From Nanobdellati archaeon (GTDB lineage Archaea > B1Sed10-29 > JAGVWA01), in the NCBI GenBank assembly GCA_018304505.1, contig JAGVWA010000002.1, positions 16,567 through 80,566 on the forward strand: 64,000 bases of DNA, in the 5' to 3' direction. Made by a program: the position numbers and the translations under genes. The first letter of the stretch is position 1. Every line of letters starts with the position of its first letter. Below, piece by piece: positions 5,433-26,030 of this stretch. The notes beneath the pieces are model-generated. The model worked only from the letters and a program-made list of their open reading frames with translations, searched no databases and was not told the DNA's origin.

Positions 5433-5433
5433 C

Positions 5434-6544: not shown

Positions 6545-6568
6545 CGAGGTTTTTCTGGGGGGCTTAGC

Positions 6569-7221: not shown

Positions 7222-7238
7222 TCGCGGAGTGATATGCA

Positions 7239-7930: not shown

Positions 7931-7958
7931 GGCCGGAGACAATTTGGTAGTGATCAAT

Positions 7959-9529: not shown

Positions 9530-9572
9530 AGCAGGCGTCAATAAAGCAGGTGCGGCAGACAAAACAGCGTCA

Positions 9573-9653
9573 AAGGCGCATGAGCATCTTGCGCCGTCAG
9601 AGGCGTATGAGCATCTTGCGCCGTCAAAGGCGCATGAGCATCTTCTTGTTCAG
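9573..9653. repeat. 3 x 27-bp tandem repeat; each unit contains the hairpin GGCGCA-N9-TGCGCC
   Basis: Units 9573-9599, 9600-9626, 9627-9653. Unit 3 encodes the last 9 codons of the minus-strand gene 9624-9923. Units 1 and 2 are in-frame copies each ending in TGA (reading ..KKMLMRL* RRKMLIRL* RRKMLMRL*). Confidence 0.85.
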
Positions 9654-9923
9654 GTCCAAGAGTTTCTCATTCAATTCTTTAATGGAAACAAGCAACGGCT
9701 TCAAGCCTTCAAGCATTTCCTTGATTGTGTGCACCTCATCGGCCAATTCGTGCGATTCCTTTTCAGACAAGCCGGAAACGCTGCCATGCAGCGCCTCGAT
9801 TTTCTTCTGGTGCTCTTCAAGGTCACTTTTCACAGTGTCCAAGACCCGCGAAACTTCCTCCGGGGACTCTGGCTCTGGCGCCGGTTCAGGCGCTGCGCCC
9901 GTTGTTTCTTCTTCATCCTGCAT
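9624..9923 (-). CDS. small acidic coiled-coil protein (hypothetical)
   Basis: 99 aa. Pro/Glu-rich N-terminus then heptad-like LEEHQKKIEALHG..LKPLLVSIKELNEKLLDLNKKMLMRL. The 3' end is part of the 27-bp tandem repeat. The overlapping plus-strand ORF 9295-9927 is judged antisense noise. Confidence 0.5.
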   Translation of the reverse strand: MQDEEETTGAAPEPAPEPESPEEVSRVLDTVKSDLEEHQKKIEALHGSVSGLSEKESHELADEVHTIKEMLEGLKPLLVSIKELNEKLLDLNKKMLMRL

Positions 9924-9991
9924 TTAATCACTCAACGTACACTGGTATTTAGTAACAAAGGTATATATATTAACATTCGCTTTATTAGCAC

Positions 9992-11533
9992 ATGGCGGAA
10001 CTGGACTTAAAACACGGGCCTTGGACAGCGATCTTCAGCGGCGAATGGAAGGGGCACGAAGTCAGTTTGTACCAAAACCCGGACATGCTGACGATGTTGA
10101 TGTTGGTAGACACATCGCCTGAAGGGCAAGCCAAGGGCGTCCTGATTGTCCTGAATAAGTACTTCACCTTCAAGGGGTCTCCAGAAGAGCTGGCAACTGC
10201 ATTACGGGGGTATTCGCTCGTGTTCGAAAAAAACACGCCGACGTTCAGGGCAAAGTACTTCGCCCTCTCGAGTTCACCGAGGTACGCGAAGCCTGACCAG
10301 GAATCGATACAGGAAACCATAGAAGAGAACTTTGCAGAGTTAAGGCAGAGGAGTGAACAGGCCATCGAATCAAGCACGGCTTATCAGGTTGACTTGACTG
10401 ACATTAGGAACTCCGGGAAGGATTTGCAGGACAAGCTCTTCAGTGAACCAAGCATACTCACGGGTTTAATGGTTACTGCGCCCGGTGTTGGGGCTGTCAC
10501 AGAAACAGAGGGCGGCGAAGCCATTGCAGGTGCCCCAGCGCGAGCCAAAGCAACCAATGAAGCAACAGCCCTGCTGGGAAAAAAACTCACAGGCGAAAAC
10601 GCAACAGAGGTACTGCAGAGCTTCCTCACAACGATTATTTCGGGCAGCGACAAGGAAGTGAAAAAAGCAGCACACGTGGTCCTTGAGAACTGTGTGTTGA
10701 ACAACGTCATCACGATTGTGTATGATGAGGACAATTACTTTGAGAGAATGAAAACGCCGAACCAGAACTTTGACCGGGAGCATTATCCTGAACTGGAACC
10801 GATAGGCATGCCTGTCAAAAACGTCACACTTGAGAAGATAGGCATCAACCTCGACCTCATGGACTCGAAATCATTTAGGGAGATTCTCAGGATAGCTGGT
10901 GATTCAATAACAGGGAATGACACTTATGCGCTGATAGGCGAGGTCTTTTATAAATATCCTCAGGGAATCGACAAGCTGGACGACGTCATTGGTTTGCTGC
11001 TGCAGGAAGAGGATCCGCAGAAGATGTTTCATTCGCGGCGTGCAGCCCGCTTCTTGAAAATCCTTGAGCAGAAACACCCGGGGGTTTTCAGAAAGGGCAC
11101 TGACATGACGCAGTTTGTGTCTGCTTATGCGGCTGCGTTGAGCCAGGCCATCAGGCTGCCATTGCAGAACGTGACGCCGGAAATCAAAAAGGCAGTCATG
11201 TTGTCCATGTCGAGCGCATTCCTGAACTATTACAAGGAACGCAACCCATCAAGTGCGCTCAAGGCGCTACACTTAATGACAAATGCCAACAACGTGATGC
11301 AGGCTGATTCTGAAAAAGTGCTTGATGCAAAGCTCATAGAAGTTTACAAGCAGTCGCAGCAGATCGGCATCGGTTACCTCTTCGGGCTTGACGTTGACGC
11401 CGCGCCCCACGCCGACGTTCAGTCAAACCAAAGTTTAAGCATTTCGTTTGTTACGGAAACCGAAGTCGCCGTGAAGGAAAAAACCGGCAAGCCCTACCGT
11501 GCAGTCCTGAGGCCGCCGCTGTCTGCATATTAA
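9992..11533 (+). CDS. hypothetical soluble protein (513 aa)
   Basis: Long ORF with no TM helices and no motif I recognise. Confidence 0.55.
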   Translation: MAELDLKHGPWTAIFSGEWKGHEVSLYQNPDMLTMLMLVDTSPEGQAKGVLIVLNKYFTFKGSPEELATALRGYSLVFEKNTPTFRAKYFALSSSPRYAKPDQESIQETIEENFAELRQRSEQAIESSTAYQVDLTDIRNSGKDLQDKLFSEPSILTGLMVTAPGVGAVTETEGGEAIAGAPARAKATNEATALLGKKLTGENATEVLQSFLTTIISGSDKEVKKAAHVVLENCVLNNVITIVYDEDNYFERMKTPNQNFDREHYPELEPIGMPVKNVTLEKIGINLDLMDSKSFREILRIAGDSITGNDTYALIGEVFYKYPQGIDKLDDVIGLLLQEEDPQKMFHSRRAARFLKILEQKHPGVFRKGTDMTQFVSAYAAALSQAIRLPLQNVTPEIKKAVMLSMSSAFLNYYKERNPSSALKALHLMTNANNVMQADSEKVLDAKLIEVYKQSQQIGIGYLFGLDVDAAPHADVQSNQSLSISFVTETEVAVKEKTGKPYRAVLRPPLSAY

Positions 11534-11557
11534 CTACGGGTTACGGGTCGTGGAAAA

Positions 11558-11695
11558 ATGGAAAAAATCAAGATGCTTGGAGCAATGATGAGACTGGCTC
11601 GTTTTAAAGGCGCAGCAAAAAAGAAAACAACTGATGCAGAATACGAGCTGATTAGAGCAAAGGCGTTTAAGACATTGGAAAAAAGATTCGAGTAA
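11558..11695 (+). CDS. possible small basic protein (45 aa)
   Basis: ATG 25 nt after the previous stop. MEKIKMLGAMMRLARFKGAAKKKTTDAEYELIRAKAFKTLEKRFE. Below the ORF-track cutoff; coding status uncertain. Confidence 0.25.
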   Translation: MEKIKMLGAMMRLARFKGAAKKKTTDAEYELIRAKAFKTLEKRFE

Positions 11696-11952
11696 TAGCT
11701 CAGAGCAGATCTTCAGGTTTGTAATGCGGTGAAATGTCTTCTAGTTTTTTAAAGTCCACATCGGTCTTCGTATAAATCCATCCAAATCGAGGTGTCAAGG
11801 TAGTATCTTTCCATCAAGGGGGATTAGTGATTTGGCATGTTTATATAACTTAGTCATGCCGCCGCTGTCTGCGTACTGAGGCCTCGTGAGGGAAGGCTTT
11901 TTATATAAAATGCGCCACAATTTTGTAAAAGTAATGGTGTGGAGGGATGTAA

Positions 11953-12324
11953 ATGTGGGGACAGCAAATAGTTGACGCAGCAACAGCCAACAGGCGAAGC
12001 ATTAAATGGTGGGGGCCGCGCGAATCATTTCCGTTCAGGGACGGCGAACCAAAATACCCCGAAGGCCGAATGGTTGGCTCAGTCGGCATCCCGCGCGAAG
12101 AACCCGGGCTGTACGTGAACGTTGTAAATGGTGATGCTGGAATATTTTACATGTATTTAACAGATGATGAAAACGGAAGACATGCAAGCCAGATGGCGAC
12201 AACCGCAGACCGTGCGTTCAGGCAGGACTTGCTGCGCCAAGGCCAGGACAGCAAAAGCACAAGGGAATTTTTGAGGGAAATGCAATCGCACTTTGAGCGG
12301 CAGTCCCCGGAAGAAGATCAGTAG
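11953..12324 (+). CDS. hypothetical protein (123 aa)
   Basis: ORF preceded by about 250 bp of noncoding sequence. No recognisable motif. Confidence 0.4.
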   Translation: MWGQQIVDAATANRRSIKWWGPRESFPFRDGEPKYPEGRMVGSVGIPREEPGLYVNVVNGDAGIFYMYLTDDENGRHASQMATTADRAFRQDLLRQGQDSKSTREFLREMQSHFERQSPEEDQ

Positions 12325-12803
12325 TCCTCTTCGTACTCGTCACGCGGGCGCCTTCTTCTGCGCACGGGTGCAGCGCGTTTTCTTTCCTCTAATTCAAGAG
12401 CTCGGTCGATCTTTTCGTCAATCAAGTCGTTGACCTGGTCTACAGTGACGTAGGCCACGGGGTTCATCTGGTTAACAATGTACTTTGTCTCATCAACAAC
12501 CCCGCGCAGCTTTGACAGCTCCTTCTGATTCTGATCGACAAGCCTCTGCAGTTCAGCCGCGTTTCCAGCACCCGCCGCACTGGCTGTCGCGGCCACTTGT
12601 TTCGTTGTAGCTGCCTCAGCTATCGCTTTTTCAAGGTCTTTGAGCATCTTATTATGGCTCACGAGGGTTTTGCCGATGATCTGCTCGTTCTTCTCGATGA
12701 TCTTCATTCGCTGTGCAATGACCTGAATTTTAGAATTAAGGGAACTCACTTCTCCTAATAAGGCTCCAACAGATGCGGGTTGCGCCATGTAATCATCGTG
12801 CAA
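12318..12803 (-). CDS. coiled-coil protein with an Arg-rich acidic C-terminus (hypothetical)
   Basis: 161 aa. Long heptad region and a C-terminal PVRRRRRPRDEYEEDY. Divergent from PolB. Confidence 0.5.
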   Translation of the reverse strand: MHDDYMAQPASVGALLGEVSSLNSKIQVIAQRMKIIEKNEQIIGKTLVSHNKMLKDLEKAIAEAATTKQVAATASAAGAGNAAELQRLVDQNQKELSKLRGVVDETKYIVNQMNPVAYVTVDQVNDLIDEKIDRALELEERKRAAPVRRRRRPRDEYEEDY

Positions 12804-12854
12804 AGTTTTAAATCAATCACGAGCCTTCTACATATAAACCTTACTTCATAGTGA

Positions 12855-15197
12855 GTGGTGATTGGAATCAAGGCTTACATTTTGGATCTCAAGTCAGAAG
12901 GGGAAGACAAGATAAAGATGACGCTGCGTGACAAGTCTTTTCAGGAAGCCCATGACACCTTGCAGCCGTACTTTTACCTAGAGCCTGAAAAAAAGGGCCA
13001 CAAGACGGACATAGAAAAGATCCCGGGCGTCATTAAAGTTGAGGATTACGAGGATTCGCTAGGCCAGAAGCTGCTGAAAATCACCGTGGATCATCCTGGC
13101 CGCATCCCGGAAATCAGGACCAAGATGCACGCTTACGGCGTCAACAGGGAGCATGACATACCGTATCACTTTAGGTATCTAATCGATAAGGCCCTGCATG
13201 CGAACACGTATTACGATTTCGAATTGGACAACGGAATGGTCAAGGGTGCCAAAAAAACATCACTTGGCTCGCCGAAGTTGAACATGTGCGCCTTCGACAT
13301 TGAGACCCATTCGGAAAAAGGTGTATTCCCCGACCCGAAACGTGACCCCGTGTTGATGATCGCATACAAGGACGACAAAGAAGAAAAGGTGTTCTATTGG
13401 CAGGAAGGTAAAGGAACCGAGAAAGAAATGATACTGGCCTTCATAGACAAGGTGAAGACGGAGGAAATCGACGTCCTGGTAGGCTATAACTCTGCGGGCT
13501 TCGATTTGCCATACTTGAAGGAGCGGGCCAAGAAGCTCGGTGTTGACTTCGATTTGTCAAGGGATGGGTCTGATCTGCACATAACAAAAGGCGCCTTCCC
13601 CAGGGCAACAATGTACGGCAGGATGCACATCGATGCGTACAACGGCGTCGAGTTTCTCAGTTATATCGGCGCGCTGAGGCTGCCAAAAAACGACCTTGAA
13701 TCAGTGTACAAAGCGTTCCTCGGAAAGGACAAAATCGACATACACTACGATGACATCACAACGTTCTGGAAAGCGGGCGGCGAGAAACTTAAGAAGCTAA
13801 TTCAGTACAACAAGGAAGACGCGCGCGCGGCATACGAAATCGCCGAACGTTTACTGCCGTTGTATAACGAACTCAGCCGTCTTATCGGGCTGCCGATTTC
13901 TGACGTGTCCAGGATGAGCCCGAGCCAGATGGTGGAATGGTACTTGACGAGGAAGGCCTTCGAGCGCAACGAAGTCATACCAAGGAAGCCGAGCAGCGAG
14001 GAAATCAAAAAACGTCAGCAGAGGCCAATAGAAGGCGGTTTCGTGAAACTGCCAAAACGGGGGATACATGAGCACATTGCCGTGTGCGATTTCCGGTCAT
14101 TGTACCCGAGCATCATCATTTCCCACAACCTCGATGGCCACGCGCTCAACTGCAATGACTGCACGGAAAAGGAAAAGCACCACAGCCCAGCAGGCTACTC
14201 ATTCTGCAGCAAAAAACAGGGCCTGATTCCACAGATCCTCGAAGAGCTCATCAACGCGCGCATTGGGGCAAAGAAAGAAATGAAAAAACACAAGCAAGGA
14301 ACGCATGACTACGATGTATTGCAGGCAAAACAGTGGGGACTCAAAATTTTGGCAAACTCAGTCTACGGCTACTTAAATTTTGCAATGGCGCGGTGGCACT
14401 CGCGTGAGGCGGCAGAGGCCACAACAAGCCTCGCCAGGTTCTACATCAAGGACACAATCGAAAAGGCTGAGAAGGCAGGCTTCGAAGTGCTTTATGCAGA
14501 CACTGATTCGGCGTTCTTGCTATTGAAAAACAAAAGCGAAGTCAAAAGGGCAAAGGAGTTCATTGAAAAAATCAACAAGTCGCTCCCTGGATTGATGGAA
14601 CTGGAATTCGAGGGATATTACCCAAGGGGCTTGTTTGTCACAAAGAAAGAAGGCGGTGCGGCAAAAAAACGATATGCTCTAATTAAGGAAGACGGCACCG
14701 TGGAGATAAAGGGCTTTGAATTCGTTAGAAGAGACTGGAGCAACATTGCCAAGATAACACAAGAAAAGGTCATTAATGCAGTGCTGAAGGAAGGCAAGCC
14801 GGAAAAGGGCATCAAGATAGTCAAGGACGTCATCAAGGATCTGCGGGCCGGCAAGGTTTCTCTTGAGGATCTTGTAATATACACGCAGATAACCCGCCCG
14901 CTGTCGAGCTACGAGGCCATCGGCCCCCACGTCAGGGCAGCCCAGCGGCTTATCGAAAAAGGCGAAAAGATCAGGCCTGGCAGCGTTGTGGAATACATTG
15001 TGACAGAAGGGCCGGGCAACATTGGCGAGAAGTCCTGGCCCAAACAGCTGCTGGGAAACCGCAAGCCGGACATGGAGTACTACATCAAGAACCAGATCAT
15101 CCCAAGCGTCATCAAAATACTGGCAGAGCTCGGCGTGACAGAAGATGAGTTAAGCAAGGATGAGAGGCAAAAATCGATAGCCCAGTGGTTCTCGTAA
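12855..15197 (+). CDS. polB: family B DNA polymerase (archaeal PolB)
   Basis: Exo I FDIETH, Exo II YNSAGFDLPYL, motif B KILANSVYGY, motif C YADTDS, N-terminal ILDxxxExxDK like archaeal PolB. 780 aa. GTG start (or the GTG 3 nt downstream). Confidence 0.92.
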   Translation: MVIGIKAYILDLKSEGEDKIKMTLRDKSFQEAHDTLQPYFYLEPEKKGHKTDIEKIPGVIKVEDYEDSLGQKLLKITVDHPGRIPEIRTKMHAYGVNREHDIPYHFRYLIDKALHANTYYDFELDNGMVKGAKKTSLGSPKLNMCAFDIETHSEKGVFPDPKRDPVLMIAYKDDKEEKVFYWQEGKGTEKEMILAFIDKVKTEEIDVLVGYNSAGFDLPYLKERAKKLGVDFDLSRDGSDLHITKGAFPRATMYGRMHIDAYNGVEFLSYIGALRLPKNDLESVYKAFLGKDKIDIHYDDITTFWKAGGEKLKKLIQYNKEDARAAYEIAERLLPLYNELSRLIGLPISDVSRMSPSQMVEWYLTRKAFERNEVIPRKPSSEEIKKRQQRPIEGGFVKLPKRGIHEHIAVCDFRSLYPSIIISHNLDGHALNCNDCTEKEKHHSPAGYSFCSKKQGLIPQILEELINARIGAKKEMKKHKQGTHDYDVLQAKQWGLKILANSVYGYLNFAMARWHSREAAEATTSLARFYIKDTIEKAEKAGFEVLYADTDSAFLLLKNKSEVKRAKEFIEKINKSLPGLMELEFEGYYPRGLFVTKKEGGAAKKRYALIKEDGTVEIKGFEFVRRDWSNIAKITQEKVINAVLKEGKPEKGIKIVKDVIKDLRAGKVSLEDLVIYTQITRPLSSYEAIGPHVRAAQRLIEKGEKIRPGSVVEYIVTEGPGNIGEKSWPKQLLGNRKPDMEYYIKNQIIPSVIKILAELGVTEDELSKDERQKSIAQWFS

Positions 15198-15272
15198 TCA
15201 GGGCCACTACGCTGCCCGCCGGAAGGTATTTATTTGTAATAGGATTAGTCTTCTATCGTATCATAAAATTCC

Positions 15273-15530
15273 ATGATCATTCACTTAGAGCTTTATACGT
15301 ATACTTCTTCTGATTTGCCTAAAAAGATAGCTATACGGGGCGATGGCAACTTCAATGTCCACGTGCAGTCCGTGGACGACTCATGGAGTGGTGCCATTAG
15401 CTTTAAGCCACGCAACAACAATGAGGTAATAAAAGTGGTTCCGCTTGGGCACCAACGTTATGACATTTACTGCGTGAACCCGTTTTATAGCGGGAGCTGT
15501 GATGTTAAGCAGGTGCGCTTTATTCGATAG
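15273..15530 (+). CDS. truncated member of the secreted 'KGxG..C-x(4-7)-C..EL[ED]I' paralog family (possible gene remnant)
   Basis: 85 aa with no signal peptide. Retains the family C-terminal module IAIRGDGNFNVHVQSVDD...CVNPFYSGSCDVKQVRFIR, closest to 17965/18810. Confidence 0.35.
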   Translation: MIIHLELYTYTSSDLPKKIAIRGDGNFNVHVQSVDDSWSGAISFKPRNNNEVIKVVPLGHQRYDIYCVNPFYSGSCDVKQVRFIR

Positions 15531-15572
15531 CGAATGAAAAGAAAAACGAGACCGTCATTGGCTGTGGCGTTT

Positions 15573-16016
15573 TTAGTAGTCAATGACGTCGAGTTCTCGT
15601 AGTTTGCACTGGAAGTACTTGCTCGTGCACTTTATGAAGAAACCAGTGATTTTCTTGTCGTCTTTAATCTTTGGTGTAACATAGACGCCGGATTTCCTCA
15701 TCTCTACTGGCGTGGTTTCGCCGCTCGTGGTTCCGTCTTCGAAGCGTGTTATTGCCACAAACCACCCGCTGCCGCGGAGTTTGAGCTGGCGCACCCTGTG
15801 CCTTGGCTCGTCGAGTTTTATTTCTAGAATTTGTTTTCTTTTGGTTTGTATCTTTGAGTATGTGCTGATTTTGCCGTCTGAGATTGAAGGCGAGTACACG
15901 CTGTCGCCGGCAGTGGCTGTGTAGCCTACATCAACTGCTAAGGCTGCGGGCACCATTAGTGTAACGGCCAGCAAAAATGCTAGTGCCCTAGTTGAGTTTA
16001 AGTTGAAATTTGTCAT
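15573..16016 (-). CDS. secreted protein, paralog family member (subtype A)
   Basis: Sec signal ..ALAVDVG. C-terminal module LKLRGSGWFVAITRFEDGTTSGETTPVEM..GFFIKCTSKYFQCKLRELDVIDY*. About 55% identical over the C-terminal 90 aa to 22469-22975. Confidence 0.7.
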   Translation of the reverse strand: MTNFNLNSTRALAFLLAVTLMVPAALAVDVGYTATAGDSVYSPSISDGKISTYSKIQTKRKQILEIKLDEPRHRVRQLKLRGSGWFVAITRFEDGTTSGETTPVEMRKSGVYVTPKIKDDKKITGFFIKCTSKYFQCKLRELDVIDY

Positions 16017-16185
16017 CGAATCATCTTAAATATTTATTGCAATTCCGGTATATAAACCTATCGGTTTGGTTATGGTTGTGGGAGAAAAATGCTGTGCTGT
16101 GGGAAATTGGGTATGGAAAAAAGTGCCGTGGGGTGTTAAATGCTGTTGGTGGTCTTTGTTATTAGTGGTGTTGATTATCGTGTTG

Positions 16186-16803
16186 CTATGGGTATATCTC
16201 GAGCTCATATATAAAGCAGGGAAAGTACTTATTAGTGCACTTTATTTCAAATCCATAGTACTGGTATGGCGATAACCCGCTGCTTCCTGTCGCGTCGCGA
16301 ATTGGTGGCACAATGTCTACCCCCCTCTTCTGGTTGGCCTTTACGGGTGTACTTTCGTAGCTTGTGGTAGAAATGCCTGCTCCCTTCGGTCTTTTAGCTG
16401 GATCACTTTTTTCATATTTTGATATGATAACAAACCAGCCGCTGCCTTTTATCCTGACCTTGCTTACTGTCCTGACGGGATTAGTGGCGGGATTACTGAA
16501 GGCGATTGAGAGTGACGAACGTCTCTTCACCGAGAGCAGATACTTGGTGTTCATGTTTCCATCACTGACTGTACTCCGTTTGGCATCTCCCAGACCCCTA
16601 AAAACGTAACTTATGGAGCCAGCGGCAAAGCCCGGTGTGATGGGCTCTTCTTGGGCAAAAATCTGATTGTAAACACTGTCTATGGTTTCATCGGCGAAGC
16701 CTGTGGCAAATGCAGCGACAACGATGATGGCGAGGGCTGCTGTTATGAGTAGGGGTTTGTTTTGAAGGTATTTGGTTATTGTTGCACCCTTTTGTTTTCT
16801 CAT
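16186..16803 (-). CDS. secreted/membrane-anchored protein, paralog family member (subtype B)
   Basis: Signal anchor ..AAFATGFADE. Module VRIKGSGWFVIISKYEK...GFEIKCTNKYFPCFIYELEIYP*. Pairs with 21744-22400 (same GFADE signal end and EIYP* terminus). Confidence 0.7.
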   Translation of the reverse strand: MRKQKGATITKYLQNKPLLITAALAIIVVAAFATGFADETIDSVYNQIFAQEEPITPGFAAGSISYVFRGLGDAKRSTVSDGNMNTKYLLSVKRRSSLSIAFSNPATNPVRTVSKVRIKGSGWFVIISKYEKSDPAKRPKGAGISTTSYESTPVKANQKRGVDIVPPIRDATGSSGLSPYQYYGFEIKCTNKYFPCFIYELEIYP

Positions 16804-16883
16804 ACAAAAAGATAAGTCACTGTGGTATTTATACGTTGCCGTTGTGGCCCTGCAACATGGGGCCGAACAAGTAACTATTAATA

Positions 16884-17804
16884 ATGGTCGCGAGTATGTT
16901 TATAAAGAGGATGTGCATGGAAGACGCAGAGAAGAAACTCGTCTTTAATCATAGCGAGACAAGGGGCCAGGGCTCAATGGAGTACCTGTTCATCATCGCA
17001 GGCGTTTTAGCAGTAGCTGCAATCGCTGTCTTGTTTTTGACAAGCGCGGGATCAGGGGCTGCACAGCAGCAACTAATCACGAATTGCGTCACTTCGGCCA
17101 CAACATGCCAGGCTGCACAGCTCGCGAGTCCGGGAACAACGTGCCTTTCATCATGCGCAAGGTCATGCAGTGACCCCAGAACGGGGATTGATCTGATGTC
17201 CAAGGATTCGGTTTTTGACATCCAAAGAAACAGGCCTGTTGCGTGCCCCCCGGGTTCGGCGTGCAGCCTTTGCGGGCTTGGAAAATCGGATTTAGTTGTA
17301 ACAGCACTAGCAGGGAACAAGCAGGTCGCGGTGCTGTCACCCCTGGTGCCGGAAAGCATCGGCCAAAACCAGCGTACTGCGGTCTCGTGCAACACTAGAA
17401 TAAGGCAGGTCATGTATCCCCTGCAAGGCGACAGGTATTTGCTTTACTACACCGTGGAAATACAAGGAAGAACACCCTTGGTTGATTTTTATGTCATTGA
17501 AAACAAGCCCGCGTCGTTCAATGGCCAATGTGTAGGAATAAACCCGACACAGGCCTACGGCAGCGTCCTGAATTTTATGAGCAACTATGAACAGCAAGAG
17601 GCCTGCGTAACAGAATTAGCCGGGCAAAACCCCCAAAATCCCTTTGCCCCGATACTGGTTTCAACAGCGCAGGCAAACAACCCCGCGGGCGCTATGGTAA
17701 ATCTTGATGAAGCAAACCTCGAATTCACGGTGCTGTACTTCACCCCGGGTTTTGAGCAGGACCTGTCAGATTCAACGCTCGGGTTAGTCATTGGCGGCCG
17801 CTGA
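16884..17804 (+). CDS. type IV pilin-like protein with an archaeal class III signal peptide, Cys-rich
   Basis: ..HSETRG|QGSMEYLFIIAGVLAVAAIAVLFL matches the archaeal prepilin (DUF361-like) motif (Q+1, S+3, E+5, hydrophobic stretch). Shares CxxxxRxCSDPRxGxD and near-identical N-terminal DNA with the pilins at 55369 and 55992. The leader is longer if 16884 is the true start; alternative ATGs at 16911/16917. Confidence 0.75.
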   Translation: MVASMFIKRMCMEDAEKKLVFNHSETRGQGSMEYLFIIAGVLAVAAIAVLFLTSAGSGAAQQQLITNCVTSATTCQAAQLASPGTTCLSSCARSCSDPRTGIDLMSKDSVFDIQRNRPVACPPGSACSLCGLGKSDLVVTALAGNKQVAVLSPLVPESIGQNQRTAVSCNTRIRQVMYPLQGDRYLLYYTVEIQGRTPLVDFYVIENKPASFNGQCVGINPTQAYGSVLNFMSNYEQQEACVTELAGQNPQNPFAPILVSTAQANNPAGAMVNLDEANLEFTVLYFTPGFEQDLSDSTLGLVIGGR

Positions 17805-17964
17805 CACCACTGCCACGGGGCCGTTGTCAGCTGCCATAGTGACGCTGTCAGCTGCTATGGCATGATATTGTAGGCCCGCGGAAAGGTTTTAGAAAGGTTT
17901 ATATATGTATGCTGGTTTGTTATAAAAATAAGGTTCCAAAGGCCAAATAAGCAGAGGTGAAAAA

Positions 17965-18771
17965 ATGGACTTAAGTTCGACTAACACAAAGATCATCATA
18001 GGGGTTTTAGTAGTGGCTGTTTTAGGAGGATACTATTTATTCTTTGATACAAGTACAACACCCGGGACTATTGAGGAGGCCACCATAGTTGGGCCACTGT
18101 CGGAGGATACAATCGGGCCCGGCTTTGCACCCACAACATCTTTTGTTAATTTAACATCTGGCCAAACCGGAACAGCGCCAGGTGGTGTCTCAGTAACCTT
18201 CAGGGCGGGTTCAAAAGTAGGGACGACACTCTACGCAACTTTCGATGTTGGAAGGGTATTGAGTGACGGAACAGCCTACAATTTCACAACTTATGCGATG
18301 TCGCTAAACCAATCGCATGTGAATGAAACCGCAGGGGTGACAGTATCTGTTGTCTCACTCGAAGAGATAAGCCAAGGTGTGTTTAATGTAATGGCAAGAA
18401 TAAGTGTAAGCGAACTTAATGTAAGTGTAAGTGAAGTAAAATTGAAGTACTACAATACATTATCAGGAAACATTAACGATGGTTCTACAGCAACATACAC
18501 GATAATGAGGAGCAGAACAGGTGTTGGCATCAAGCTGTTTACCAATTCCACTGTCAGTAAAATGACAATCAAGGGAAATGGCTACTTCAACGTGCACTCT
18601 AAGTTCACTGATGGGACATGGAGCAAAGCCTACGGCGCGCGCACAGACCCGAAAACATACGAAATCACGTTTACACCACCGTCAAAACCAGGGCAACTCA
18701 TCAGCAACTTTGAGCTATGGTGCAGCTGGAGCAGCGCTTGCAGGATAAATGAATTGGAGATCTACAAGTAA
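17965..18771 (+). CDS. secreted protein, paralog family member (subtype C)
   Basis: N-terminal signal anchor. Module MTIKGNGYFNVHSKFTDGTWS...ELWCSWSSACRINELEIYK*. Confidence 0.65.
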   Translation: MDLSSTNTKIIIGVLVVAVLGGYYLFFDTSTTPGTIEEATIVGPLSEDTIGPGFAPTTSFVNLTSGQTGTAPGGVSVTFRAGSKVGTTLYATFDVGRVLSDGTAYNFTTYAMSLNQSHVNETAGVTVSVVSLEEISQGVFNVMARISVSELNVSVSEVKLKYYNTLSGNINDGSTATYTIMRSRTGVGIKLFTNSTVSKMTIKGNGYFNVHSKFTDGTWSKAYGARTDPKTYEITFTPPSKPGQLISNFELWCSWSSACRINELEIYK

Positions 18772-18809
18772 GCACTAATAACCTATTTCGCAATTTGGGG
18801 AGATCATAA

Positions 18810-19328
18810 ATGCATAAACTGAATATAAAATCGAACACCAAAATCATTATCGGGGCGATAATCGCTCTAGCACTAGTTGCTGGGGTCTTTGTTTATGTTG
18901 ATTCAGGCTCAACGTCAACTGGTTTGACACCCGCGGAACTCGCGGACATAGAGGGGAAGTCTGCGCAGGAAGAATTGCGACCTGGCTATTATCTTAATCC
19001 GGGGCAGGTGCCGTACTATGGAGCACCAACAGCGATCTCAGATCGGAACACGGGCACGATAACCATACTCCGAAGGCGAGAGGGGGTCAAGGCATTAATT
19101 CTTGGCGGGTATGGGGCTCCATCAGTTGCAAAAATAAATGGATATGGTAGATTCAATGTTCATTCACTTTTCAGTGACGGGACTGCCAGCACTGCAGTAG
19201 TAGCAAGCGGGAGCGGTGATGTCACCCTGAAGAAAAAGTCAGGAACAACCATCAAAGGCGTTGAGTTATGGTGCCCTTCGTATTTTGGCAGCCCGTGTGG
19301 GATACGTGAACTTGAACTATACCAGTAG
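18810..19328 (+). CDS. secreted protein, paralog family member (subtype C)
   Basis: N-terminal signal anchor. Module AKINGYGRFNVHSLFSDGTAS...ELWCPSYFGSPCGIRELELYQ*. Confidence 0.65.
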   Translation: MHKLNIKSNTKIIIGAIIALALVAGVFVYVDSGSTSTGLTPAELADIEGKSAQEELRPGYYLNPGQVPYYGAPTAISDRNTGTITILRRREGVKALILGGYGAPSVAKINGYGRFNVHSLFSDGTASTAVVASGSGDVTLKKKSGTTIKGVELWCPSYFGSPCGIRELELYQ

Positions 19329-19384
19329 CTTGCAATGAGTTGCATAATCATCCTTCTAGTTGCATAGCTATTCACCCTGTGCTT

Positions 19385-19861
19385 TTACACCAAGCAAGGC
19401 CTGTACTGCTGCCGTTCTTGTAAGTAGTTCTGCAAGTGCGCAACACTAACTTCTGTAGTCTTGTCATCAAAATCAGTAATCACTATCCTGTCGCCATTCT
19501 CGAAAAACGGCAGCACCAGGGCGGTCTGCCACTCGTCAACGTTTTCAATGTCCCCGCCGGTTTCGAAACTTTCCCCGATTTGTATTGTCGGTACAGAAAA
19601 TCGCTGCTCATAAAGCACATCTCCTGCAGTTGACAAAACCTGTGCATTGTAACCCTGCAAAGCCCGCGGCGTCACGGACGCCTCTGCAACTGCCACGCCA
19701 GGAATCACTAAGCCAGACCCTGTTTTTTCCAAGCCCACGATGTATGATGCAGCGGGCGGGCTGGTTTGTGAAAAACCAAGCGACATCGACGCAACAATAA
19801 GCGACGCGGCCGCGAGAGCCAATATTACCAGCGATGCGTTATTTAGCCATTGTTTTCTCAA
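19385..19861 (-). CDS. secreted hypothetical protein, co-transcribed downstream of the metalloprotease
   Basis: Sec signal [29 protein letters not shown]. Its start overlaps the protease stop (ATGA-type overlap at 19858-19861). Confidence 0.55.
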
Positions 19862-21678
19862 GCATATCCCTCCAAGAGTTTTTCGAGTGCAGCAAAGCTC
19901 GGCGCGTCGAACTTCACCGTAACAAGTTCCGTTGTTTCATTCAGGGTCTGCCTTTGCGGCAGTTCCGCGCCCTCCATTAGCGATTCCCCAATCTCAGGGT
20001 TGTACTCTGCTGGTCGGTACCAGTCGCTGTACATGCAACCTTCGCGGCCATACTTGTCAGTGCTGTAGCAGCCAGTGCCAGGAATGTCATTCCATTTATC
20101 GCAACCCATTGGCGCACAATTCGGGGCATCTTTTAGCCTGCCGTCGCTGGGAAACCCGTATGAGTACTGGTCTGCAAGGTTTATCTGTTCAGGTCCAAAG
20201 GAGTGGCCGAACTCATGTAATGAAATTTCAGGGTACATTGCTGATGCATAAGCATGCGGATTCGCGGTGCCGGCTTGGTTGGGGGTGTTCATTAACACAA
20301 TGATCTCCTCATAGGGGCATATGCTAGCGATCCTGGAAATGGCCTCGTCGTTGCATTTTATTGTGCCACTGCTTTCTATGCAGTCAAGGCCAGCGCCCGA
20401 CAAAACCGTGTGGATGTTGATCTTGCCCGCGTTTTTCTTAAACGGCTCAACACTAACTAAATGGTCTGCGTGTATTTTCGCGTGCTGTTCAAATAGCGCG
20501 GCATTGGCGTATTTGTCGCCAAGGAAAACAATGTCTAGTGGATTGCTTCCTGTGCCCTGGTGCAGCGTTACGCATTCCAGTTCGTTTATTGTAAATGACA
20601 CGGAATCGCTTTGTTTGGTGTTTCCTTCTCGGTCTCTGGCTTCTATAATCATGTGTTTATCCCCAACAGTTGCCTGCACAGAGTCAAAGGTTCCAAGGTA
20701 CAGGCACTTGCCTGCTTTTTCTGATCCATCGATGGCTTTGCTGCGTTCCATTCTCACGTCAAACGTGCCGATTTTGGCGGTAACTGCAGGTACTGAGACG
20801 CATTCAGATTCCCCGGAGCTAGCTAAGTGTAAGACCTCTGTTTGGAGGGTGAAGACCGTTCCTTTTGTACTAGAAGTAGGGTAGATCGAGGTGTCTTTGA
20901 ACTGCGCGTTCGCCGCTATAAATGGGCTGGCCTGAAAACTTGTGAGCGCGAAATAAGCCACCACAGCAGCGGCAATTACCGCGGTGGCAATAAGGATTAT
21001 CTTGATCGTCCTCTTTGCAGCGTCGCTCAGCAGCGGTTTCTTGACTTCCACTTCTGGGGCCTTTAGGGCCTCTGGAACAGGTGCAGGCATCTCGATTTCC
21101 GGCGCTGCTACTGGCACTGGCGCCGGTGCAGGTGTGGGTGTCGGTTGCGGTTCTGTTGGTGTGGGTGTCGGCTCGGGGGTTGGTTCTGGTGTTGGCTCGG
21201 TGGTTGGTTCTGGTGTTGGCTCGGGGGTTGGTTCTGGTGTTGGCTCGGGGGTTGGTTCTGGTGTGGGTTCTGGTTGTGGTGTTGGTTCTGTGGGTGTTGG
21301 TTCTGGGGTCGGGGGTTCCGGCGTCGGGGCTGTTAGTTCTGTTGGTGTCGGTTCTGTTGGGGTTGGTTCTGCTGGTTCCGGTTCTGTTGGGGTTGGTTCT
21401 GCTGGTGTGAGTTTTTCAGGGGGCTGTGGTTCTGGTTCTGTTGGTGTGGGTTCTGGCGTGGAGGGTGTCGGTTCTGGAGTCGGCGCTGACTCCGGTTCTG
21501 TTGGTGTTGGTGTGGGTTCTGTCGGTGTCGGCTCAATTAGCGTGGCTTCTGGCGTTGTAATCTCGCGCTGTTGCCCTTCCCGCGTTTTGGGTTTTTCTTT
21601 CTCGGCTTCATGTTCTGGCTTCTTTTTTTCGCCACCCATGCGTAATGATAACCGTGTTTCATATATTAAAGTATACAA
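19858..21678 (-). CDS. membrane-anchored zinc metalloprotease (HEFGH zincin; M64/IgA-peptidase-like motif) with a ~200-aa N-terminal Pro/Thr/Glu repeat
   Basis: HExxH as LHEFGHSFG followed by LADQY, reminiscent of HEFGHxFxxLxDEY zincins. Single [23 protein letters not shown]. Cys-containing C-terminal domain. The N-terminal (TPEP)n low-complexity region precedes the TM. An alternative internal start at [10 protein letters not shown] just before the TM is possible. Confidence 0.6.
21100..21545. repeat. low-complexity tandem DNA repeat (18-bp period ggttctggtgttggctcg-like) encoding the (E/T)P(T/E)P repeat
   Basis: Visible periodic DNA. The plus-strand Gly/Ser/Val ORFs 20984-21712, 21081-21410 and 21145-21336 are antisense readings of the same repeat. 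Confidence 0.8.
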
Positions 21679-21743
21679 ATCTGCATGGTACCCGCGCGTT
21701 TATATATGTTGAGCTGCTAATATGTTTTAGTTGGTTGAGTGTA

Positions 21744-22400
21744 ATGGCAAGTGCGGTACTTACTCAGGTTTTGGGGCACAAGAAGCCCGTAATAATCGTG
21801 GCATTTGCTTTGGTTCTGGCAGTGGTTTTTGTTAGCGGTTTTGCCGATGAGGCGATTCAGGATGTATCTCGCTCGATTTCAGATGCCTTCGAGCCAGAGG
21901 CTGCACTGACAGCCGGTCATGCACTTGGCACTATTGATTATGAGGTATATATTTATCGTAGTTATGAGCAGTATTATTATTATAAAAACAAGGTTGAGGA
22001 GAAGGAACGGGATTACAATGCTCAATATAATATTATTGATCACAACCTGAAAACTAAGATAAAACTCGAAAACCAGCGGCGAGAAATCCTTAGCCTCAAT
22101 TTCAATAGAAGGAACACACTTAGCAAGGTCAGGATAAAAGGCAGCGGCTGGTTTGTTGTTACGGCCCATTATTATCAATCCAATAGTGGGGCTGTAAAAG
22201 ATCCGTCTTCAATTGATCGGCGTTTATTTACTCTTAGCGGCGAAACGACTCCTGTAAAGGCAAGCAAGAAAGGGGTAGATATTGACCCTGTACAAAACAC
22301 AATTACGCCTGTGGGGGTGATATACTTTCAATCAGTCGAGGTTTATTGTACTAGTAAGTACTTTGACTGTACGATCTACGGCATAGAGATATACCCATGA
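21744..22400 (+). CDS. secreted/membrane-anchored protein, paralog family member (subtype B)
   Basis: First ATG after the protease gene. The track start 21645 overlaps the protease CDS. Signal anchor ..VVFVSGFADE. Module VRIKGSGWFVVTAHYYQSN...VEVYCTSKYFDCTIYGIEIYP*. Confidence 0.7.
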   Translation: MASAVLTQVLGHKKPVIIVAFALVLAVVFVSGFADEAIQDVSRSISDAFEPEAALTAGHALGTIDYEVYIYRSYEQYYYYKNKVEEKERDYNAQYNIIDHNLKTKIKLENQRREILSLNFNRRNTLSKVRIKGSGWFVVTAHYYQSNSGAVKDPSSIDRRLFTLSGETTPVKASKKGVDIDPVQNTITPVGVIYFQSVEVYCTSKYFDCTIYGIEIYP

Positions 22401-22468
22401 AATGCCCACTCGTTAGGCACAGGCAAAGGTTTATATACCCAATTTGCAATAAATATTGAAGGTGATTT

Positions 22469-22975
22469 ATGATGAAAGTCAATGGAAAATCTTCAAAAGT
22501 CGGAAGGCTAATGCTGACTGCATTGGTGGTTTTAGGGCTACTGATGCCAATCGGAGTGCCGCAGCAAACCCCACAAGGAACGCATGACGGCAGCCAATAC
22601 CCTGAGCTAAGCTTTGCGTCGAAGATCAACTTTCAGGTCATCGCGGGCGACGAATACATGACCAAAAAGATCACTGATGGAAGCAAATGGACATACGCCA
22701 AGATCCAGAAAAAGCGACGCCAGAAGGTGGAGGTTCACTTTGATGAGCCGCAGGCCAATGTTACGTCAGTAAAAATCAAGGGCAGCGGCAAGTATGTCGT
22801 ACTAACGCGCTATGAAGACAGCAGCTCAAGCGGCGAAACAAAGACTATAAAAGCCAAGGGTAAGGGCGTTGTTGTTGTTCCAAAATCGGAAAGCGGCAAG
22901 AAAATCGACGGCATCTTCATAAAATGCACCAACAAGGTCTTCAGTTGTAAGCTAAAGGAACTCGAGATCAACTGA
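22469..22975 (+). CDS. secreted protein, paralog family member (subtype A)
   Basis: Sec signal. WTYAKIQKKRRQKVEVHFDEP..VKIKGSGKYVVLTRYEDSSSSGETKTIKAKG..IFIKCTNKVFSCKLKELEIN*. Confidence 0.7.
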   Translation: MMKVNGKSSKVGRLMLTALVVLGLLMPIGVPQQTPQGTHDGSQYPELSFASKINFQVIAGDEYMTKKITDGSKWTYAKIQKKRRQKVEVHFDEPQANVTSVKIKGSGKYVVLTRYEDSSSSGETKTIKAKGKGVVVVPKSESGKKIDGIFIKCTNKVFSCKLKELEIN

Positions 22976-23106
22976 TTACGCAACCTGGGGCTCCATTTCC
23001 TTTTTCAGCCCCATTTCCTTTTTATTTCACAATGCACTGATATTAGTAATGGAAATATTAGTAACAACTGTGAAGCGTTATCCAGAAACGCGCGGAAGGA
23101 AATTCA

Positions 23107-23490
23107 ATGACTAGTACAGAAAAACTCAAGGGCAAGGCGATGCAGTGGTACGAGCAGTCCAATAAGCACTCAACAGGCAGATCAGAGGTTGTGGAAAAGG
23201 AAGCGTACGACTCTGACGACGACACTGCACAAGAACTCAGAATCATCACGGACGTGAAAAAACTCATCGTGTCTGCAAACCTCGACCGCGCCTCAATATT
23301 CTTAGATACGCTCGCGTCATTCGAATACCAGCTCCGCAAGGGCAGGATTCCGGAAAACATGCCGCAGATGTTGAGAAACCTCGCAAAGAAGCCCGAGATT
23401 GCAGCAGGGTTAAAAACTATACTAAACAAATACACATTGAATGGGGTATCCTATTATTACCAATGGGGAATTAATCAACAGCAGGAATGA
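23107..23490 (+). CDS. hypothetical protein (127 aa)
   Basis: ORF upstream of MetAP. No recognisable motif. Confidence 0.45.
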   Translation: MTSTEKLKGKAMQWYEQSNKHSTGRSEVVEKEAYDSDDDTAQELRIITDVKKLIVSANLDRASIFLDTLASFEYQLRKGRIPENMPQMLRNLAKKPEIAAGLKTILNKYTLNGVSYYYQWGINQQQE

Positions 23491-23502
23491 AAAAAGACCG
23501 CG

Positions 23503-24414
23503 ATGAAAAGAGAGAGGACACAGATGTTTAACGAAGATGACATTCCGGACTTCATAAAAGCAGGCAAGATCGCTGAAACAGCCAGGGATCGCTCCAAGAA
23601 AATCGTTAAGCCAGGAGCCAAAATCATAGACATCGCGGAATCAATTGAGGGCTGGATCAAGGAAGAAGGCGGATCATTTGGCTTCCCTGCCAACATTTCG
23701 ATAAACAACATTGCCGCTCATTACACCCCTCCGTTTGATGATACATCTGAAATACCCGAAGACGCGGTGGTGAAAATCGACCTCGGAGCCTCGGTTAACG
23801 GCTGCGTTGGAGACACGGCGTACACGCTCGACTTCTCTGGCGAGCACGGAAAACTTCTAGAGGCATCTGAGCAGGCGCTCGAAAACATAATAAATCACAT
23901 CAAGTCGGGCATCAACGTTGGAGAGCTCGGGGAAATTGCAGAAGAAACCATAGCCGGAAAGGGCGTCAGGGTCATCAGGAATCTGTCAGGCCACAGGATA
24001 GAGCGGAACCTTCTCCATGGGGCCTCGGTGCCAATGATAAAGGGCTACAAGGGCTGGGAGCTCGAAGAGGGCATGGCGATTGCCATCGAGCCGTTCGCGT
24101 CTACTGGAAATGGGAACGTCAAGGAAGGCGCGAGGACAGAAATCTTCATGTTTCAGCGCGATATCCTAACCCGGAATTTGGACGCGCGCAATCTATTGGA
24201 GAACATAAAGCGAGAATTCAAGACCCTGCCGTTTGCCGAGCGATGGATTATTCGGGACCAGCAGACATTTAAATGGAGACTGGCAATGCGGGAACTCATA
24301 ACCCGCGGAGCACTGCACCCATACCCCGTGTTGCTGGAATCTGCAGGAAGCAGGGTTGCGCAGTTCGAAAAAACGCTGCTAGTAGAAAAGGATTCATGCA
24401 GAATACTGACATGA
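23503..24414 (+). CDS. map: methionine aminopeptidase, type 2 (archaeal MetAP)
   Basis: GFPANISINNIAAHYTP, KIDLGASVNGCVGDTA, HRIERNLLHG and AIEPFASTGNG align with the MetAP2 metal-ligand motifs. 303 aa. Confidence 0.85.
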   Translation: MKRERTQMFNEDDIPDFIKAGKIAETARDRSKKIVKPGAKIIDIAESIEGWIKEEGGSFGFPANISINNIAAHYTPPFDDTSEIPEDAVVKIDLGASVNGCVGDTAYTLDFSGEHGKLLEASEQALENIINHIKSGINVGELGEIAEETIAGKGVRVIRNLSGHRIERNLLHGASVPMIKGYKGWELEEGMAIAIEPFASTGNGNVKEGARTEIFMFQRDILTRNLDARNLLENIKREFKTLPFAERWIIRDQQTFKWRLAMRELITRGALHPYPVLLESAGSRVAQFEKTLLVEKDSCRILT

Positions 24415-24458
24415 CAAGGCCGTAACATGATACGGCGATAACATTACAAGGCGATAAC

Positions 24459-25670
24459 ATGACGCAAGTTGATTACAGGAACCTCGCAATTCACGCGACT
24501 GCATTTGGTTTATTTAGCGTGGCATGGATGTACCTATTTTCGCAACTAGGCATTGGGTTAAGCACTGCCACAGATCTTGGTTATGCCAGGTCACTGCTGA
24601 CGCAGCAAAGAATAATAAATGTTGTTTTAATGGCCCTGTTTTTCGGGGCAGCATCGGTCACGCTGGTAAGAAGGGCACACGTCAACACAATGTACGAGAA
24701 GTCATTGACCCCGCTAATCGGAGGGGCCATTGCTTATTACCCGGGCATGCTGTTCTTCGGCGCGACGTTACAGTACAACATGATTTATGCGTCGTACCTG
24801 ATTGGCGCAGCGCTGACGTCTGCCATGATTAAGCCGGACATCAAGGGCTTTGGCTCAAAATTAAAAGCAGGGTACCTTGCGCCAAAGAAACTGATTCTTG
24901 TGTTGGCCCTGGGCACCGCACTGACGACATTCGTTGTTGTAAACCAGGACATTGATTTTTACGAAAACCAGATCAAGCAGAACCTGCTTTCAAGCCTCGA
25001 GAGCTTTGACATCGGAAGCTTGGCATCGCAGATCGGTTCCAACGACGCACTGTTGCGGGCAACGGTTGAGCAGCAGCTGCAGCAGTACAGCGACATGGAA
25101 TTCGTGGAATCTCAGCTTCCCGCAATTGAATCGAATGAGTCAATGCAAACCCGCGTACTTGCGCAATTCCAGGCGCAGGCAGGATGGAATACGTTGTCAC
25201 CACAGCAGCAGCAGGAATATGTTTTGCAAGGCCTTGAGGATGTTTACAACAAGACAATAGCTGCGAGGGAAAACGCTATACAAGAAGCCATGGGCCTGTC
25301 TCGGCTAGAAGGCAGTGCGAAGGAAGAAAAAATTGAGGAGCTTATTGAACTCGCAAAGAAGGCAGGGCCCCAGCTCGGTCAGTTGCAAGGGAGTTTGGGC
25401 GAGGGGCAGTTGCAGGGGGTGCTTGAAAACGTTTTTGAAACCATGCCCCTGTTCAAGATGATCATACAGTATCTCCCGATTATTAACGCGTTTGCAAACT
25501 TCTCCGCAGTCATCTTTGTAGGCAACATCATGATTTCGCCCCTGAGTAGTGCCTTTGGCTTCCTGATCATACCAAAACAAGGATTTCAAAAAACGCAGCA
25601 GCAGACGCAGGAAGAAGAAATGAGGCAGGCTGCGGAGCACGCTACGAAGATGAAGAAGCTGCAGGGATAA
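24459..25670 (+). CDS. polytopic membrane protein with a Gln-rich linker (hypothetical)
   Basis: 5-6 N-terminal TM helices, Q-rich coiled segment, one C-terminal TM. Confidence 0.5.
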   Translation: MTQVDYRNLAIHATAFGLFSVAWMYLFSQLGIGLSTATDLGYARSLLTQQRIINVVLMALFFGAASVTLVRRAHVNTMYEKSLTPLIGGAIAYYPGMLFFGATLQYNMIYASYLIGAALTSAMIKPDIKGFGSKLKAGYLAPKKLILVLALGTALTTFVVVNQDIDFYENQIKQNLLSSLESFDIGSLASQIGSNDALLRATVEQQLQQYSDMEFVESQLPAIESNESMQTRVLAQFQAQAGWNTLSPQQQQEYVLQGLEDVYNKTIAARENAIQEAMGLSRLEGSAKEEKIEELIELAKKAGPQLGQLQGSLGEGQLQGVLENVFETMPLFKMIIQYLPIINAFANFSAVIFVGNIMISPLSSAFGFLIIPKQGFQKTQQQTQEEEMRQAAEHATKMKKLQG

Positions 25671-25724
25671 AGAATAAAAAAGAAGCAAAGACTTTTATTC
25701 ACCAATCAGCACAGATGAATAACT

Positions 25725-25799
25725 GGGTCCATAGCGCAGCTTGGATAGCGCGGTTGGCTTCGGACCAACAGGTCGGGGGTTCGAATCCCTCTGGGCCCG
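25725..25799 (+). tRNA. tRNA-Arg (anticodon TCG)
   Basis: Cloverleaf folded by hand: acceptor GGGTCCA/TGGGCCC, D-stem GCGC/GCGC, anticodon stem GTTGG/CCAAC with loop CTTCGGA (anticodon TCG, G37), T-stem GGGGG/CCCTC with loop TTCGAAT, discriminator G. CCA is not encoded. Confidence 0.9.
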
Positions 25800-25800
25800 T

Positions 25801-26030
25801 AGCAACAGTTTCGGCTGTTGCATCGCAAGGGCTGCGATTGCAACGAAACGAAGTTTCGTTGAAGATTTGAAAAACAGGGTTTTTCAAATTTGACAAACGC
25901 GTAGCGTTCTGTCAAATCTCAAGGAACGCAATTCCTTGCAGACCCCTTGCATCCCCGCAGTGCCACATTCGGCTGCGCCGAAGTGCCACGGTTCCTTGTA
26001 GGCTCCTTCTATCCTCGCAGTGCAAATGCA
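25801..26030. other. array of at least six consecutive stable hairpins immediately 3' of the tRNA (structured noncoding region)
   Basis: gcaacag-tttcgg-ctgttgc; atcgca-agggc-tgcgat; caacgaaac-gaa-gtttcgttg; ttgaaaaac-agg-gtttttcaa; ttgacaaacgc-gta-gcgttctgtcaa; caagga-acgcaat-tccttg; ttcggc-tgc-gccgaa. The stems are all different, so this is not a CRISPR array. Confidence 0.6.

Follow-up and report, generated by a model that had tools for sequence, protein, structure and literature searches.

Among the genes in the 64,000-nucleotide stretch analyzed here (hereafter the window; contig JAGVWA010000002.1, positions 16,567 to 80,566, from the Nanobdellati archaeon assembly GCA_018304505.1), seven open reading frames (ORFs) share a C-terminal module of approximately 105 amino acids (aa) and form what, by sequence, is a species-restricted, unclassified (orphan) paralog family. 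They lie in a lineage-specific island of 7.9 kb and 10 genes (15198-23106), located between the gene encoding DNA polymerase B (PolB) and a small conserved gene. The module is predicted to be a complete eight-strand β-jelly roll of the galactose-binding-domain-like type, an assignment made at the level of the fold only. With moderate confidence, we propose that these proteins are lectin-like binding modules, which a DPANN archaeon secretes or tethers to its membrane and which are displayed for a ligand on another surface.

All seven ORFs are present at the expected coordinates, six of them intact and one truncated at its 5' end, and the invariant columns of their multiple alignment comprise a G-x-G motif, a serine, and two cysteines. 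An initial annotation of the region had described eight ORFs, a module of about 90 aa, and seven Sec signals or signal anchors. The family hidden Markov model (HMM) detects no eighth copy anywhere in the 64-kb window, the module starts at an I-x-D-G-x3-T motif located upstream of the first motif recognized at that time, and an N-terminal hydrophobic signal or anchor is found in six members. What had been said about the C-terminal end of the module stands: the Cys pair is invariant in all members, being at the same time the only cysteines in every member, and every copy of the module terminates 0-3 residues past the last motif.

The annotation divided the family into subtypes A, B, and C, allowing that these might be similar only by chance, with no significant E-values between them. 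Their homology is, however, upheld by two approaches. Pairwise BLASTP comparisons, with E-values computed at a nominal database size of 1e8 residues, yielded 1e-33 for A1-A2, 2e-30 for B1-B2, 1e-14 to 1e-6 for A-B pairs, 1e-9 for C1-C2, and 0.008 for A1-C1. HMMs built with one subtype left out were scored against all 1190 six-frame segments of the window: the HMM based on A and B recovers C1 (2e-9) and C2 (2e-6), and the HMM based on C alone recovers A1 (1e-9), A2 (4e-9), the truncated copy C3t (2.8e-6), B1 (1e-4), and B2 (5e-4), with no other segment scoring below E 0.3. Because both the leave-one-subtype-out HMMs and the pairwise comparisons link the subtypes, we consider the family real. 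The mirror arrangement of the subtypes suggested earlier applies to the A and B pairs but not to type C, in which C1 and C2 stand in tandem and the truncated copy lies at the left edge.

At that edge, C3t (15273-15530, plus strand, 85 aa) is a 5'-truncated C-type copy that keeps the GxG kink and the Cys pair; approximately the first 30 residues (the first third) of the module are absent, and the protein possesses neither a signal peptide nor a hydrophobic segment. It is scored at E 1e-4 by an HMM not trained on it, and since it begins 75 nt after the PolB stop codon, it is best regarded as a remnant cut at the island edge. A1 (15573-16016, minus strand, 147 aa) is composed of a Sec signal (..PAALA|VD), a short linker, and a module encoded by 15576-15896, and B1 (16186-16803, minus strand, 205 aa) of an anchor or signal (..TGFA|DE), a linker, and a module (16189-16581) with two loop insertions. 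C1 (17965-18771, plus strand, 268 aa) carries an N-terminal anchor and, ahead of its module (18451-18768), an extra β-rich region of approximately 130 aa, which holds five of the six N-x-S/T sequons of the protein; no sequence match to the N-terminal region of C1 was found in the PDB. C2 (18810-19328, plus strand, 172 aa) consists of an N-terminal anchor, a linker, and the module (19020-19325). At the opposite end of the island, B2 (21744-22400, plus strand, 218 aa, module 22020-22397) and A2 (22469-22975, plus strand, 168 aa, module 22658-22972) are the mirror paralogs of B1 and A1, respectively. For B2, the start codon at 21744 was preferred over that at 21645 owing to a TATA box approximately 40 nt upstream and a 218-aa database entry.

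The view that these are exported or surface proteins is supported by the N-terminal hydrophobic segment identified in each of the six intact members; this is the single hydrophobic stretch per protein (residues ~3-41), with none elsewhere. The signal of A1 is classical (..PAALA|VD), B1 and B2 both end theirs in ..GFA|DE, and those of C1 and C2 resemble signal anchors. All modules are basic, with an isoelectric point (pI) of 9.4-9.9, whereas the other exported proteins encoded on the island are acidic, namely a pilin-like protein (pI 5.0), a protein termed here X (4.2), and a protease (4.5); the median for the window is 7.9.

As the annotation had stated, the module belongs to no named sequence family, and this result was obtained with Pfam, NCBIfam, PDB profile, and hhalign searches. 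No family match was found in Pfam or NCBIfam at E<=1, no match to any family member in PHROGs or PADLOC, nothing significant when the family profile was compared with all PDB sequences, and no family relative in a scan of IMG/VR. A profile word-index search of 5.8 billion clustered proteins returned only four of the window's own proteins, annotated as 'MAG: DPANN group archaeon' (MAG, metagenome-assembled genome), and with a HMMER scan of 1.84 billion representatives, run without filters, all six intact members were recovered together with two repeat proteins (P0007 and P0008). The latter two were rejected as homologs, being Ig-like repeat proteins whose E-values are the sum of 4-9 repeats at 0.8-12 bits each. 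We also considered that the family might be a divergent F5/8 type C domain at the level of sequence, a lead suggested by the DG..T ... ELEIY motifs. It was rejected, and only the fold-level likeness remains: there is no PF00754 match at E<=1 and no discoidin or CBM32 chain of the PDB at E<=10, and the hhalign comparison of A2 with an alignment of 107 PF00754-annotated domains, retrieved with factor VIII C2 and all of animal origin, gave a probability of 0.3% in local and 0.1% in global mode.

The fold assignment is based on two AlphaFold2 models. Mature A1, modeled with the seven-row alignment, yielded eight β-strands with a predicted local distance difference test score (pLDDT) of 80.1 and a predicted template modeling score of 0.72, and the module of C2 was modeled at pLDDT 81-95 with the same strand pattern. 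Both models have the eight-strand jelly-roll architecture of galactose-binding-domain-like proteins; Foldseek matched them to the carbohydrate-binding modules (CBMs) CBM29 and CBM32 and to APC10 with a probability of 0.99-1.0 (best E 0.025) and a template modeling score of up to 0.60, the latter normalized on a query that includes a disordered tail. Carbohydrate-binding modules make up most of the top matches and also provide the best-scoring match of each model. In the models, the two cysteines are located at the end of strand 7 and at the start of strand 8, which makes a disulfide across the last hairpin loop plausible, and one long predicted strand is broken at the conserved G-x-G, which may introduce a kink. 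The E-L-E-I-Y ending forms the last strand of the sandwich. The C-terminal position of the module, previously suspected of serving as an assembly or sorting signal, thus appears to be simply that of the last β-strand, and a C-terminal hydrophobic anchor is not present.

Each intact protein is built from an N-terminal Sec signal or membrane anchor, followed by a variable stalk, which in C1 includes the extra sequon-rich region, and a compact basic module of ~105 aa. According to the reading that we favor, the modules would be shown on, or released from, the cell surface. Their ligand would reside on another surface and would most probably be an anionic glycan or glycoprotein of the envelope or matrix of a host cell, and subtypes A, B, and C may represent different specificities. 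A role in interaction with a host, one of the functions listed in the initial annotation, would be the most plausible of its candidates, the function itself being deduced from the features described above.

Several observations weigh against this reading. Both models were built on one alignment of seven sequences and thus on the same sequence set, and none of the Foldseek matches reaches an E-value of 1e-3 or better. No sequence link to any lectin or CBM family was found using Pfam, NCBIfam, the PDB profile, or hhalign. Members of the same fold class also bind protein (APC10, IFT25) or lipid (factor V/VIII C2) and serve in toxins (PirA), therefore the fold alone leaves the type of ligand unfixed. 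With ~105 aa, the module is shorter than a typical CBM32 (130-150 aa), hence the usual ligand-binding loops may be trimmed. Finally, eight assemblies from other samples are 99.8-100% identical to the window and contain no single-nucleotide polymorphism in the family genes, which means that no sign of ongoing diversifying selection or hypervariation can be seen.

The same fold could serve protein-protein contacts instead, in which case the modules would be envelope-structural units docking on the organism's own S-layer, pilus, or membrane without binding carbohydrate, as exemplified by APC10/DOC, IFT25, and GOLD-type sandwiches. A pilin gene is encoded in the same cluster, the short module may be devoid of long sugar-binding loops, and basic modules could dock on the acidic ectodomains of the pilin, X, or the protease (pI 4.2-5.0). 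We nevertheless consider docking of this kind unlikely: the best structural match for each model and most of the other top matches are carbohydrate-binding modules, small-jelly-roll families engaged in protein interactions show no sequence match, and seven diverged paralogs with variable stalks are better suited to diversification of ligands than to a fixed structural partner.

The island neighbors of the family bear on the remaining alternatives. The type IV pilin-like protein (16884-17804, plus strand) combines a class III signal peptide with an extracellular part that is acidic and rich in cysteine, and its identification as a pilin in the initial annotation is confirmed by a match to Pfam PF04021 (Class_IIIsignal; E 7.8e-8, above the curated cut-off). 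Within the island, PF04021 matches this protein only and none of the seven family members. The zincin reported earlier is confirmed as well: the protein encoded by 19858-21117 (minus strand; 419-aa version) is a membrane-anchored M64-like zinc metalloprotease that contains the HEXXH zincin motif in the form HEFGH, matches Peptidase_M64 (PF09471; E 8.9e-7, 28.8 bits versus a cut-off of 26), and, around HEFGH, matches the PDB entries 3p1v (E 2.5e-6) and 4df9 (1e-5). A longer version of its ORF, reaching 21678 by way of a Pro/Thr-rich repeat, is conceivable; since the only three other homologs found (391-398 aa, one of them from a Diapherotrites MAG) lack this N-terminal extension, its translation is doubtful. 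The underlying tandem repeat tract (21105-21560), made of degenerate 12/15-nt units, separates the core of the protease gene from the promoter of B2 and shows a strong GC/AT skew; both strands carry an open frame, which reads PEPTPE on the minus and GSGVGS on the plus strand. It is also length-polymorphic between samples, with a 24-nt indel at 21205-21228 relative to assembly L001 plus several substitutions.

Directly downstream of the protease gene, X (19385-19861, minus strand, 158 aa) is acidic and exported; the start of its gene overlaps the stop codon of the protease gene, and X is probably carried on the protease transcript. A contig of other origin, L020, encodes an X homolog (24% identity, E 2e-7) overlapping downstream of a protease homolog, with no family member present, so protease and X constitute an independent two-gene module for which the family is not an obligate partner. 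On the same contig, upstream of the protease homolog, a gene cut by the contig end (2-370, minus strand) encodes a small signal-peptide protein that the family HMM does not recognize and that may be either a small surface protein without relation to the family or a copy too diverged to be detected.

A protease gene in the same island, together with the apparently cleavable signal of A1 (ALA|VD) and the preference that basic modules would have for anionic lipid head groups, might suggest that the family comprises secreted effectors or toxin-like receptor-binding proteins (similar to PirA, Cry toxin domain III, or lipid-binding discoidin C2), possibly processed by the protease, which attack or permeabilize the membrane of a host. 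We judge this improbable. The occurrence of the protease-X pair without the family gives no indication of a dedicated protease-substrate relationship, which the initial annotation had raised, the B and C types look membrane-anchored rather than released, and the island was found to encode neither a PirB-like nor a pore-forming partner, with no matches from PHROGs and PADLOC.

Clustering with a pilin gene and the invariable location of the module at the extreme C-terminus could also be expected of fibre subunits that polymerize by donor-strand exchange or by means of a terminal-strand assembly signal, and the family profile matches, weakly and non-significantly (E 0.15), the Bacteroides protein 3ufi, which we take to be fimbrillin-like. 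Such subunits, proposed in the initial annotation, are very unlikely. In both models, the eight-strand sandwich is complete in itself, with the C-terminal strand as an integral and confidently placed element, leaving no incomplete Ig-like fold to be filled by a neighbor, and pilin-like proteins are absent among the structural neighbors. A class III signal was found in none of the seven members, and the island lacks usher, chaperone, and sortase-like genes. The six intact members show no C-terminal hydrophobic or sorting segment and no NCBIfam sorting-signal match; the combination of motif, transmembrane helix, and basic tail typical of archaeosortase signals (PGF-CTERM, PEF-CTERM, PIP-CTERM) is not present.

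The boundaries of the island were deduced from PolB-anchored scans of genome and metagenome collections. To the left, PolB is encoded by 12855-15197; to the right lies the conserved small gene (23107-23490), followed by a methionine aminopeptidase gene (23503-24414). The sole informative relative retrieved is L009, the MAG archaeon DPZ-2_202101_bins_94, whose PolB is 52% identical; the other PolB matches are 24-31% identical, and the family was found in none of them. The window is collinear with L009 over 4968-15194 and 23074-25867, and in L009 the PolB stop codon (7914) abuts the homolog of 23107-23490 (start 7915), which is followed by genes encoding methionine aminopeptidase and a membrane protein. 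Given this collinearity on both sides and the direct contact of PolB with the right-flank gene, 15198-23106 represents a lineage-specific 10-gene indel. The earlier view of the family as lineage-specific is upheld by this, the whole cluster being missing at the syntenic locus of the closest relative and no relatives having been found in any database searched.

Within the island, synonymous sites are saturated in every paralog pair (proportion of synonymous differences 0.69-0.84, compared with 0.76 for random codon pairs). The inverted duplication of the B-A gene pairs at the island ends must therefore be old, and, for the same reason, dN/dS ratios are uninformative. Against this background, B1 and B2, which are 36% identical overall with saturated synonymous sites, share a 42-nt tract (16429-16470, minus strand, and 22116-22157) that is 95% identical and includes 12 consecutive identical codons (SKVRIKGSGWFV); by our own arithmetic, local codon usage would produce 12 identical codons with a chance of ~2.5e-6. 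Judged from the sequence, short gene conversion between the inverted paralogs is the probable origin of the tract, constraint at the nucleotide level being the other explanation.

Restriction to one lineage, absence from the syntenic site of the relative, and inverted paralogous genes at both ends would also suit a remnant of a virus or mobile element whose jelly rolls are receptor-binding or capsid-decoration proteins, but this is barely credible for an island with no integrase, capsid, terminase, or replication gene, no viral or defence match in PHROGs or PADLOC, no relative in IMG/VR, a GC content equal to that of its flanks, neither flanking direct repeats nor an adjacent tRNA gene seen (the only one lies 2.6 kb away), and mirror copies duplicated long ago.

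Returning to the lectin-like binding modules that we propose, a broader hypothesis, which we put forward only tentatively, would treat the island as a self-contained host-interaction cassette of an uncultivated DPANN archaeon. In such a cassette, a hitherto undescribed minimal family of disulfide-stapled lectins with three specificities, a dedicated pilin, and the protease-partner pair would act together on a specific host, recognizing and holding it and remodeling its envelope locally, and the cassette, gained or retained only in this lineage, would act as a determinant of host range.

Most island genes are preceded by their own TATA box. The promoter and leader of A1 (16019-16059, minus strand) contain a B recognition element and TATA box (AGGTTTATATA) and a GATGAT Shine-Dalgarno-like element (inverted repeat I4); it has a conserved counterpart upstream of A2 (22427-22467, plus strand), the two regions being 88% identical over 41 nt, with a TTTATATA box. 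C2 begins 38 nt past C1 and has no TATA box of its own, and is therefore probably co-transcribed with C1. Downstream of A2 (22976-23050), a T-rich stretch contains two tandem copies of the motif CCATTTCCTTTTT; judged from its sequence, this repeat region probably serves as an archaeal terminator of transcription at the island's right edge.

Elsewhere in the window, a complete type IV pilus/filament locus (51163-58022) encodes a T2SSE ATPase (51163-53112), two T2SSF platform proteins (53109-54311 and 54358-55290), two pilins with class III signals (55369-55830 and 55974-57194), and a Peptidase_A24 prepilin peptidase (57423-58022); a second T2SSE ATPase is encoded by 32843-34381. This machinery could process and assemble the pilin of the island. 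Directly downstream of the pilus locus, a giant acidic ORF (58175-64000, running off the window end; >1942 aa, pI 4.7) contains a Laminin_G_3/ConA-like lectin domain (E 1e-17).

Three further observations concern the region to the left of PolB. The ORF at 124-3501 encodes a 1125-aa protein (pI 4.6) without a Pfam match. A tandem array of four small unannotated ORFs (100-116 aa) at 6569-7930 is kept in order and number in L009 (1175-2991; 31-37% identity), whose encoded products resemble small membrane proteins. A 513-aa ORF (9992-11533), which has no Pfam match and a 34% identical counterpart in L009, includes a 75-nt hotspot (10461-10535) in which assemblies with an identity of 99.8-100% elsewhere differ by approximately 10 substitutions and 9 inserted bases; since the substitutions show no specificity for adenine, a diversity-generating retroelement is an unlikely cause.

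Host recognition and attachment in DPANN archaea are largely unexplained, and the players proposed so far are lineage-specific lectin-like surface proteins that are often missed by sequence methods. The locus described here offers a compact and easily expressed candidate, comprising six intact paralogs with a ~105-aa module in a delimited island beside a pilin and a protease. If the modules do bind as proposed, they would constitute a new CBM-like family and make host specificity experimentally accessible in a DPANN lineage from groundwater; if they do not, the family would be one more set of orphan paralogs in a fast-evolving genome. A new principle of fibre assembly or sorting is not supported by the locus.

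Comparison with known systems helps to place the family. Chaperone-usher pilins are likewise small β-rich exported proteins encoded near pilus genes, but their incomplete Ig-like fold is completed by the strand of a neighbor, in contrast to the complete jelly rolls of the family models. CBM29, CBM36, CBM6/35, CBM86, and PirA are of similar size (100-140 aa), and PirA is, in addition, a stand-alone module of ~100 aa; PirA, however, works with PirB, and no PirB-like partner is encoded in the island. The small jelly-roll CBMs in the match list are mostly modules of glycoside hydrolases (CBM29 originates from a non-catalytic protein), whereas the family has no associated enzyme and no sequence relation to them. 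With F5/8 type C/CBM32 domains (PF00754), it shares the predicted eight-strand jelly roll, occurrence on exported proteins, and a last β-strand located at the C-terminus. It differs from them in the lack of sequence similarity, in length (~105 versus 130-150 aa), in not being joined to any enzyme, and in the Cys pair, predicted to close the last hairpin loop, whereas animal discoidin domains have a disulfide that links the N-terminus to the C-terminus.

Organism-specific lectin-like exported proteins are a well-established theme among cultivated DPANN archaea, and our proposed reading agrees with the literature in which they have been proposed to mediate host recognition, including the ConA-like/LamG proteins LC1Nh_0399-0401 and LC1Nh_0423 of Nanohalobium constans and MJ1_0179 of Nanobdella aerobiophila; MJ1_0179 has an N-terminal transmembrane helix, and some lectin-like domains of Nanobdella are detectable by structure prediction only (10.1101/2023.10.27.564410; PMC7443923). 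Similarly to these proteins, the members of the family are exported, lineage-specific, and clustered, the last being true of the DPANN proteins only in some cases. They differ from them in fold, a galactose-binding-like mini jelly roll instead of ConA-like/LamG, in size (147-268 aa, compared with nanohaloarchaeal proteins described as large), and in forming a seven-copy paralog family in one island. The giant LamG-domain ORF of the window resembles the large lectin-like surface proteins of cultivated DPANN archaea, and, together with the pilus locus beside it, corresponds to surface equipment of the type reported from these organisms. By predicted structure and likely role, the family would represent a compact version, stapled by a disulfide, of a binding fold that is very widespread, present in a group known for its lineage-specific lectin-like surface proteins.

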